Positions 11,250 to 12,324 of a DNA stretch of 64,000 nucleotides are shown here, in pieces; position 1 is the first letter of the stretch, and every line of letters begins with the position of its first letter. A program made the translations under genes and the position numbers. This DNA is from an uncultured bacterium. Its GTDB lineage: Bacteria > Patescibacteriota > Minisyncoccia > UBA6257 > 2-01-FULL-56-20. The stretch is taken from NCBI GenBank assembly GCA_963707865.1, contig OY970175.1, forward strand, positions 396,305 to 460,304, given 5' to 3'. The notes beneath the pieces were generated by a model. That model did no database searches. It had not been told where the DNA came from and saw only the letters and a list, made by a program, of their open reading frames with translations.

Positions 11250-12324
11250 ATGAAAGTTTATCGCGACCTTTTCGGGAACATTATATCGCCGGAAAACCTG
11301 TTCAATGCGTGGGACGCGTTCAAGCAAGACAAGCGGAACAAACTTGACGTGGCTCGTTTTGAGCGGCACCTCGAGGAGAACATTTTCCAACTGCACCGCG
11401 ACCTCAAAAACAGGACGTACCGTCACGGCCCGTACGAAAGCTTCTATATCCACGATCCGAAGCAGCGGCACATCCATAAAGCGACGGTGCGCGACCGGAT
11501 TTTGCATCACGCCGTGTTTGCGGTCATCAATCCAATCTTTGAGGAAACGTTCATCCCGACCTCGTTCTCCTGTCGCGTCGGCTATGGAACCCATCGGGGC
11601 ATCGATAGCGCGGAAAAGATGCTGCGCTATGCCGATCTCCGTGCGCCACGGGGATCCTTCGCGCTCAAATGCGACATACGGAAATTCTTCGACAGCGTGG
11701 ACCACAACATCCTCATCTCCATCCTCGGAAAGAGGATAAAAGACGAGGACGCGATGTGGCTCCTGCGTTCTATTATTGAAAGTTATCCGGCCGCGCCAGT
11801 TCAGAGAGAGAGAGAGAGAGAGAGAGAGAGGAGTAAACCCGTGGCCGCGCAAGGGAATACCCATAGGGAACCTTACCTCGCAGCTCTTCGCGAATGTTTA
11901 TATGAACGAGTTTGATCGGTTTGTGAAACATGATTTGAAGGTGAAGCAATACGTCCGTTATACCGATGACTTCATGATTGTGAGCAATGACCCCGAATAT
12001 CTTGAGAACCTTTTACCACGGATCAGTGAATTTTTGAAGAGGTTGGCGCTCGACCTGCATCCGAAGAAAATCACGCTGCGACCGTTCCGCCAGGGTATTG
12101 ATTTCCTGGGTTATGTGGCGTTTCCCCATCACCGCCTCGTCCGCACGAAAACGCGCCGCCGGATGTTCAAAAAATTCAGGATAGCCATCTCCCGCTTTCG
12201 CGCGGGAGAAATCTCGAAGGAACGCCTCGAAGCGTTGCTTTCGTCCTACCTCGGCGTGCTGTCGCATGCGGATGCGATCCGATTGGCGGAGAAAATGAAA
12301 AATCTGATTTGGTTTGCGGATTGA
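11250..12324 (+). CDS. DGR-type reverse transcriptase, interrupted by a frameshift inside an (AG)14 tract (N-part 11250..11915, C-part 11776..12324)
   Basis: The N-terminal part carries RT motifs 1-3 (FSCRVGYGTHRG...FDSVDH). The C-terminal part carries motif 4 (GIPIGNLTSQLFANVYMNEFD) and the catalytic YTDD box. The two halves lie in different frames and join within the dinucleotide repeat. Confidence 0.7.
11803..11830. repeat. (AG)14 dinucleotide microsatellite inside the RT gene
   Basis: This is a perfect 28-nt AG tract, and both RT reading frames translate through it as RERERE. Changing the tract by one unit up or two units down would fuse the two RT halves. Confidence 0.9.

Follow-up and report, generated by a model that had tools for sequence, protein, structure and literature searches.

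Introduction

In the diversity-generating retroelement (DGR) of Bordetella phage BPP-1, a reverse transcriptase (RT; in this phage bRT) is found together with Avd and the RNA of a template repeat (TR) in structure 8ub7 and related entries, and mismatches between TR and variable repeat (VR) are adenine-specific. An open question is what restrains DGR mutagenesis and so keeps a useful variant from being overwritten at once. Here we describe a DGR within a 64,000-nt stretch of contig OY970175.1 (~0.9 Mb; assembly GCA_963707865.1, positions 396,305 to 460,304; hereafter, the window), from an uncultured Patescibacteriota bacterium belonging to the candidate phyla radiation (CPR). The RT gene of this element is split between two reading frames at a perfect (AG)14 microsatellite. 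Tracts of this kind occur at the same site in many related RT genes of the ultra-small CPR bacteria, where they probably act as slipped-strand switches that are mostly in the OFF state.

The window element resembles the BPP-1 DGR in the GxPIGxLTSQ form of RT motif 4, in its Avd partner and in the adenine-specific TR-to-VR mismatches. In contrast, bRT contains neither a microsatellite nor the loop insertion in which the tract lies (a 12-residue gap in the alignment), and Avd is divergently oriented beside the RT gene in the CPR elements, unlike in BPP-1.

In phasevarions, mod genes for DNA methyltransferases are switched by simple repeats, mostly tetra- or pentanucleotides. They share with the switch proposed for the CPR elements its simple-sequence nature, its seat in an enzyme gene whose activity alters many downstream phenotypes, and a hierarchy in which one hypermutable locus governs a second layer of variation. 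That layer is epigenetic regulation in phasevarions, whereas here it would be targeted DNA hypermutation. In the endosymbionts Buchnera and Blochmannia, frameshifts at poly(A) tracts are rescued by transcriptional slippage, which corrects the frame in some of the products, and, as in the CPR elements, genes that appear frameshifted at a repeat stay under purifying selection. The endosymbiont tracts are A/T homopolymers in many genes of AT-rich genomes, whereas the tract described here occupies one site in one gene family and its length changes are observed at the DNA level.

The oipA gene of Helicobacter pylori carries CT repeats in its 5′ coding region that are subject to slipped-strand mispairing (PMC10564699). 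Common to oipA and the CPR RT genes are a perfect CT/AG dinucleotide tract in the coding region, a protein that is, or here would be, switched by changes in unit number, and OFF alleles that are frequent in nature. The oipA tract lies near the 5′ end of a surface-protein gene of a pathogen, whereas the tract in question sits in the middle of an enzyme gene of free-living or episymbiotic CPR bacteria. It is, moreover, conserved at one structural loop over many candidate phyla and would control a mutagenesis machine instead of an antigen.

A CPR-restricted group of DGRs, clade 2, shows lower-than-average activity (PMC8144416). If the tract is indeed a hypermutable RT switch, it would provide a simple answer to the question of restraint for a large CPR-specific clade of DGRs. 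Simple-repeat phase variation and DGRs are each well known; a conserved and mostly out-of-frame microsatellite in a DGR RT is apparently undescribed. Neither a repeat nor a frameshift in DGR RT genes was mentioned in the full-text literature searched (including PMC5758913, PMC8144416, PMC11661182 and PMC5574713), the scope of which did not extend to Paul et al. 2017 (Nat Microbiol) on CPR DGRs.

A reverse transcriptase gene split at an AG microsatellite

The RT gene of the window consists of two overlapping open reading frames (ORFs) and a repeat tract at the junction of their frames:

11250..11915, + strand: ORF A, N-terminal part of the RT with motifs 1-3, 221 aa (ORF call; Pfam RVT_1 positions 8-107)
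11776..12324, + strand: ORF B, C-terminal part of the RT with motif 4 (GIPIGNLTSQ), YTDD and thumb, 182 aa (ORF call; Pfam RVT_1 positions 117-203)
11803..11830, + strand: perfect (AG)14 microsatellite at which the RT changes frame (Tandem Repeats Finder, 100% perfect array)
11831..11833, + strand: G-AG interruption at the 3′ edge of the AG tract (sequence)

The division of the RVT_1 domain between the ORFs bears out the original prediction, made from the sequence alone, of an RT split over two frames. The tract was likewise recovered as predicted, both by the repeat search and in the translations, which read RERERE in either frame. That the two frames share nothing except the tract holds for the frame change itself, which comparison with homologues places within ~11803-11833, and not for the ORFs as called, which overlap by 140 nt (11776-11915). 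The meaningful part of ORF A runs from 11250 to ~11802, the residues after the tract being an out-of-frame tail (SKPVAAQGNTHREPYLAALRECLYERV), and the meaningful part of ORF B from ~11831 to 12324.

An (AG)n tract contains no stop codon in any frame, and every frame reads an Arg-Glu repeat. When the gene was rebuilt with 12, 15 or 18 AG units, uninterrupted proteins of 356, 358 and 360 aa resulted, as anticipated for the loss of two units or the gain of one; any other number between 10 and 18 led to premature stops. The sequence 3′ of the tract is G-AG-TAAACC, and removal of G11831 alone also repairs the frame (...RERERERERVNPWPRKGIPIGN), giving a junction that matches the RVNP/RVNT junction of the homologues P0002 and P0004. 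As this one deletion suffices, an indel of 1 nt at the tract's 3′ end, in place of a change in unit number, could also account for the lesion in the window.

The tract sits mid-gene, at codon ~185 of ~358, and is the sole dinucleotide run of at least 5 units within the window. A search of the window with a 12-mer of AG, allowing 1 mismatch, yielded 9 overlapping matches, all of them within the tract, compared with 0.17 expected from shuffles. AGA accounts for 4.8% of the Arg codons in the window, and an RE run made entirely of AGA and GAG has a probability of p ~4e-7 from codon usage alone. The rarity of AGA and the improbability of such a run indicate that the conserved feature is the nucleotide repeat, not the Arg-Glu peptide.

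The RT contains motif 4 of the DGR form [ILV]GxxxSQ (GIPIGNLTSQLFAN). The repaired protein was predicted with confidence (predicted local distance difference test score, pLDDT, 84.8), with the Arg-Glu loop at residues 182-199 falling below a pLDDT of 50 in this otherwise confident model. Among solved structures, the repaired RT comes closest to 8ub7, the DGR RT of the Bordetella phage (hmmsearch E 3.8e-61; Foldseek TM 0.79/0.86).

Recurrence of the tract in CPR bacteria

Two independent collections, species-representative genomes and metagenome contigs, were scanned for runs of (AG)5 or longer that precede the codons of G[ILM]PIGNLT by 3-33 nt. The tract-plus-motif pattern was matched at no fewer than 119 genome loci and at least 120 metagenome loci, both counts being lower bounds. 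Among the matches listed, to which all locus counts given below refer, the tracts were perfect, 10-71 nt long (median 21 nt) and situated in the same loop before motif 4. The genome matches came from many studies and assemblers and were nearly all labelled as CPR bacteria: Saccharibacteria, Berkelbacteria, many Parcubacteria lineages, Peregrinibacteria, Doudnabacteria, Uhrbacteria and others. Loci L013, L014, L031, L035, L064, L069, L087, L093, L095, L101, L113, L114 and L119 are filed in bins labelled Gammaproteobacteria, Pseudomonadales, Bdellovibrionales or Actinomycetota. These non-CPR labels are probably unreliable, through mis-binning or mislabelling; otherwise the element occurs outside CPR bacteria as well. 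The two matches on contig L175 were discarded as a repeat-caused assembly artefact, in which the scaffold joins two different RT fragments with NN at their AG tracts (700-705).

Protein searches gave a corresponding picture. The best full-length homologues of the window RT, at no more than 69% identity and all from CPR/Patescibacteria, often carry 2-5 RE units at exactly this loop, and an RE run was present in 18 of the best 120 full-length matches. With the N-terminal half as query, hundreds of matches of 183-314 aa were obtained, and 88 of the best 120 end in an RE run followed by an out-of-frame tail. This list held short proteins only, presumably through a length-dependent choice of candidates, and shows the abundance of split halves, not the ratio of split to intact genes. 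Many N-half proteins in the database end exactly in RERERE, where either the contig breaks at the tract or a stop codon follows directly. The three closest relatives of the window RT (83, 77 and 73% identity of the N-half) all possess the AG tract and are all out of frame.

In a viral collection of 2.9 million contigs, tract plus motif gave no match. Motif 4 without the tract was found in at least 120 viral contigs; 112 of the 113 assessable loci were continuous and none had a dinucleotide repeat. Outside the RT site, 821 kb of CPR genome loci contained only five dinucleotide runs of 5 units, and none of these was AG.

Tracts of a second kind were seen in the same family. In L244 a G10 tract (2053-2062) splits the RT in the same loop before motif 4, and in L245 a G8 tract (2197-2204) splits it just after YTDD. 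GGG at the loop was noted in the proteins P0218, P0224, P0235 and P0241, and DNEYTLRGGG... in P0149, P0175, P0190, P0193, P0200, P0209, P0213 and P0223. These cases suggest that G tracts at the loop and after YTDD both recur in CPR DGR RT genes. The independent gain of different hypermutable tracts within one family argues for selection on switchability and not on the Arg-Glu peptide.

Frame states and length differences

At each locus, the frame that runs open into the tract over 300 nt or more was set against the frame of motif 4. Over all 194 assessable loci, 41 were in frame, and 72 and 81 fell into the two out-of-frame classes. After near-identical loci had been collapsed (n=180), 39 were in frame and 66 and 75 out of frame, so that 78% were out of frame and the in-frame share of 22% lay below one third (p = 8e-4). 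The share was replicated in each collection (21/106 and 20/88). An out-of-frame majority was found at every tract length, including tracts of 10-14 nt, of which 18/25 were out of frame. Tracts this short leave little room for miscounting, and their out-of-frame majority therefore counts against an artefact.

The original prediction had asked whether related loci carry other unit numbers and whether any of them gives a continuous ORF. Such loci exist among the relatives, some in frame; for the locus of the window itself an exact-flank scan of metagenome contigs gave none. Tract length differed in roughly 7-8 of 18 near-identical clusters, and in the following pairs of contigs (ON, in frame; OFF, out of frame):

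L046 and L160: flanks identical over 3640 nt; tract length 18 nt (OFF) and 20 nt (ON)
L122 and L142: 7 mismatches over 2047 nt; tract length 18 nt (OFF) and 20 nt (ON)
L079 and L205: 8 mismatches over 6870 nt; tract length 10 nt and 16 nt, both OFF
L113 and L143: 23 mismatches in 3658 nt downstream; tracts of 17 and 21 nt; L113 OFF, L143 not assessable
L069 and L087 (from two co-assemblies within one project): flanks identical over 4834 nt; tract length 29 nt and 27 nt, frame not assessable
L183 and L195: 4 mismatches in 984 nt; tracts of 15 and 17 nt; frame not assessable

The pair L010/L172 was rejected as a length comparison, since L172 starts inside the tract.

Intactness and selection in out-of-frame alleles

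Both halves of the gene were otherwise open in 146 of the 153 out-of-frame loci. Between pairs of OFF alleles, the ratio of nonsynonymous to synonymous substitution rates (dN/dS) had a median of 0.09 for the N-half and 0.11 for the C-half. If the shift were permanent, the C-half would not be translated, and a dN/dS of 0.11 there counts against decay. Generic pseudogene decay as the general cause of the split was rejected on the open halves together with dN/dS values of ~0.1.

The rest of the DGR was compared between frame classes on loci of at least 3.5 kb. TR/VR pairs were identified by a diagonal scan that had been validated on the window pair; a blastn self-comparison gave none, the mismatches being too dense. 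Adenine-biased TR/VR pairs occurred in 68% of the in-frame loci; for the out-of-frame classes the figures were 69% and 66%. In every frame class the median was 15 adenine mismatches per pair.

Altogether, the loci show what is characteristic of contingency loci: a tract far above background, toggling of the frame, an otherwise intact gene that is under purifying selection in OFF alleles and, in the relatives, length polymorphism between otherwise identical sequences. The same-site tracts, the out-of-frame majority, the differences in unit number and the purifying selection lend strong support to the predicted slipped-strand on/off switch.

Probable phase variation of the reverse transcriptase and its alternatives

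As judged from sequence comparison, the AG tract is probably a hypermutable microsatellite kept in DGR RT genes of CPR bacteria, at a disordered loop on the RT surface immediately ahead of motif 4, through which the RT undergoes slipped-strand phase variation and is mostly OFF. Replication slippage would add or remove AG units, and each 2-nt step would move the RT among three states, one ON and two OFF. In the ON state, a full-length RT with an Arg-Glu linker of variable length would be made, and in the OFF state a truncated N-half, leaving the catalytic YTDD half untranslated. Since no frame of the tract contains a stop codon, and the Arg-Glu linker that it would encode is soluble and placed in a loop that tolerates it, ON alleles should work whatever their length. 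The (AG)14 allele of the window would be OFF and one unit away from ON. Most cells would thus carry a silent DGR and a frozen variable region, and rare ON revertants would resume adenine mutagenesis of the target gene.

We infer that DNA-level slippage would reach a useful rate in vivo and that the ON form would be active; equally, OFF alleles would yield no RT and the switch would be adaptive. The deficit of in-frame alleles fits selection for OFF, and the OFF excess is consistent with selection against constant mutagenesis; it also agrees with, and could help to explain, the lower activity of DGR clade 2 (PMC8144416). If phase variation is the correct reading, it would amount to a two-tier form of bet hedging in which a contingency locus is placed over a diversity generator: the VR would be frozen in most cells and rare revertants would restart diversification. 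As far as we found, it would also be the first widespread simple-repeat phase-variation system in CPR bacteria. About four fifths of the listed RT genes with a tract appear in gene calls as a pair of short ORFs or as pseudogenes, and surveys restricted to intact RTs would consequently under-count or mis-score the DGRs of these bacteria.

Several observations weigh against phase variation. In an assembled consensus, heritable switching looks no different from fixed OFF alleles with rescue at the level of the RNA or the ribosome, and about one third of the loci have a stable hairpin immediately 3′ of the tract, which hints at an RNA-level signal. Part or all of the in-frame deficit could stem from ascertainment, should locked-ON alleles lose the perfect repeat and go unmatched by the search pattern. 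In the window, an insertion of 1 nt (G) describes the allele equally well. An exact-flank scan of metagenome contigs for the window locus with another unit number gave no match. Its only other assembly, the 1075-bp Logan contig L001 from ERR10755942 (positions 1-30 corresponding to window ~11803-11829), ends inside the tract after 13.5 units, so that it does not distinguish 14 from 15. By look-up in the searched collection, the exact Avd sequence occurred only in the source assembly and in L001, and the exact sequences of both RT ORFs, the target protein and the recombinase were absent from that collection.

The alternative that fares best is recoding at the RNA level, which we nevertheless consider unlikely. 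The AG tract would then be a programmed slippage site where either RNA polymerase or the translating ribosome shifts by one unit (+/-2 nt, with tRNA pairing, in the case of the ribosome, kept on AGAGAG); such recoding could coexist with DNA-level switching. It is doubtful, though conceivable, that out-of-frame alleles still provide a small, tuned dose of full-length RT and that the frame in the DNA matters little. Several findings speak for such slippage: each of the three frame states occurs commonly, the out-of-frame classes have about the same size, each OFF state is exactly one unit from ON, and both halves are under purifying selection even between OFF alleles. AGA is a rare codon, as stated above, and in E. 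coli about half of the 2-nt deletions in transcription fall in dinucleotide repeats (PMC5574713).

A hint of an RNA-level signal also comes from secondary structure. Among loci with a spacer of at least 12 nt between tract and motif 4, hairpins with a minimum free energy (MFE) of -5 kcal/mol or lower were predicted directly 3′ of the tract in 31% versus 3.5% of control windows, and hairpins with an MFE of -9 or lower in 15% versus 0.2%. Stem sequences vary from lineage to lineage, with UUC and UGC triloops being frequent; L043, L041, L025, L052 and L035 are examples of loci with a 3′ hairpin. Upstream hairpins were modestly enriched (19% versus 11%), and in one subgroup a hairpin ends exactly at the 5′ edge of the tract (e.g. 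L003, L017, L033, L059, L097).

Against RNA-level slippage stands the window itself, which has no strong flanking hairpin (gap MFE -2.0 kcal/mol) and no X XXY YYZ heptamer. Productive transcriptional slippage is known on homopolymeric A/T runs, often with a hairpin upstream in the nascent RNA, whereas the tract is a dinucleotide repeat, and the in-frame fraction departs from the one third expected if the frame were irrelevant. No single direction of shift is conserved, which argues against classical programmed ribosomal frameshifting; with both out-of-frame classes equally common, 22% of loci in frame and no heptamer, its single-direction form was rejected. Moreover, DNA-level length changes are frequent, so that RNA slippage is not needed to explain why the gene is retained. 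We give a minor chance to the view that out-of-frame alleles constitutively deliver a tuned dose of a dangerous mutagenic RT, helped by the 3′ hairpin in a third of the loci. Were it correct, the AG tract would be the first dinucleotide-repeat recoding signal described in bacteria.

There is little probability that the window RT is a dead pseudogene, produced by slippage or by a 1-nt indel, and that the DGR of the window is a fossil. The window allele is out of frame, homologue searches, exact look-ups and the exact-flank scan revealed no copy of this locus in frame, and a point indel could underlie the G-AG interruption. The VR/TR mismatches record past activity only. Nevertheless, the window RT bears no other lesion: its halves are open end to end, the motifs are intact, the repaired protein models confidently on bRT, and one AG unit restores the frame. 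Its three closest relatives are also split at the tract and otherwise intact. In the family as a whole, 95% of the split genes lack a second lesion, and dN/dS is about 0.1.

Less probable still is an error of sequencing or assembly, with a true window allele of 15 (or 12) units. Dinucleotide repeats are prone to stutter, and the independent contig L001, which stops inside the tract, does not confirm the count. However, the 28-nt tract is well below the length of short reads. Being out of frame is the majority state over ~180 independent loci from many studies and assemblers, down to the shortest tracts, and 99% of the viral control loci are continuous. As a general cause, the artefact that had been considered in the original prediction is very unlikely.

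A naturally split RT, with two subunits translated separately and then assembled, can practically be dismissed, since despite a TTG at 11776 in the downstream frame of the window, 120 of the 153 out-of-frame loci have no ATG in the motif-4 frame and 80 have no ATG, GTG or TTG between the preceding stop and motif 4 (which excludes the two-subunit RT as a general explanation), in-frame fused versions are common, and the same locus toggles between split and fused.

Organisation of the DGR and flanking features

Apart from the frame split of the RT gene, the DGR of the window is complete. In addition to the RT, it comprises:

9324..10247, + strand: DGR target gene, 307 aa (ORF; no Pfam match)
10103..10233, + strand: VR, at the 3′ end of the target gene (repeat pair with TR)
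10716..10846, + strand: TR (repeat pair with VR)
10890..11237, - strand: accessory protein Avd, bAvd-like (PF22296, E 7e-15)

The TR/VR pair is 131 nt long, and all mismatches (18/18) are at A in the TR. The VR ends 14 nt before the stop codon of the target gene. Hence, the features that define a DGR are all present: an RT of the DGR clade, adenine-only TR/VR mismatches, a VR at the 3′ end of the target gene, and Avd.

Avd is divergent from the RT gene; the start codons are separated by 12 nt in the window and by 4-12 nt across the window and L242-L245. The TR lies on the RT strand, just past the 3′ end of avd; given this arrangement, transcription of the TR from the plus strand would cross avd in antisense and continue into the RT gene.

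Directly after the RT gene, a large serine recombinase with Resolvase, Recombinase and Zn_ribbon_recom domains is encoded at 12462..13811 (+). It is abutted by a tRNA-Glu(CUC) gene at 13928..14005 (-), the reader of the GAG codons of the tract. The order Avd(-)/RT/recombinase recurs in the relative L243 (recombinase at 2550-3800), and this shared gene order indicates that the DGR cassette may travel with an integrative element.

Three minor features were noted around the target gene and the TR. An Rfam LOOT RNA (RF03000, 85.6 bits) is located at 8892-9006 (-), ~320 nt upstream of the target gene and on the opposite strand. A 20-nt direct repeat of 90% identity, which may be due to chance, connects 10636-10655 upstream of the TR with 11347-11366 in the N-half of the RT gene (ACTTGGCTCCTTTTGAGCGG / ACGTGGCTCGTTTTGAGCGG). 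Directly upstream of the start of the target gene, a 24-nt inverted repeat spans 9245-9299, with 83% complementarity and a 7-nt loop.

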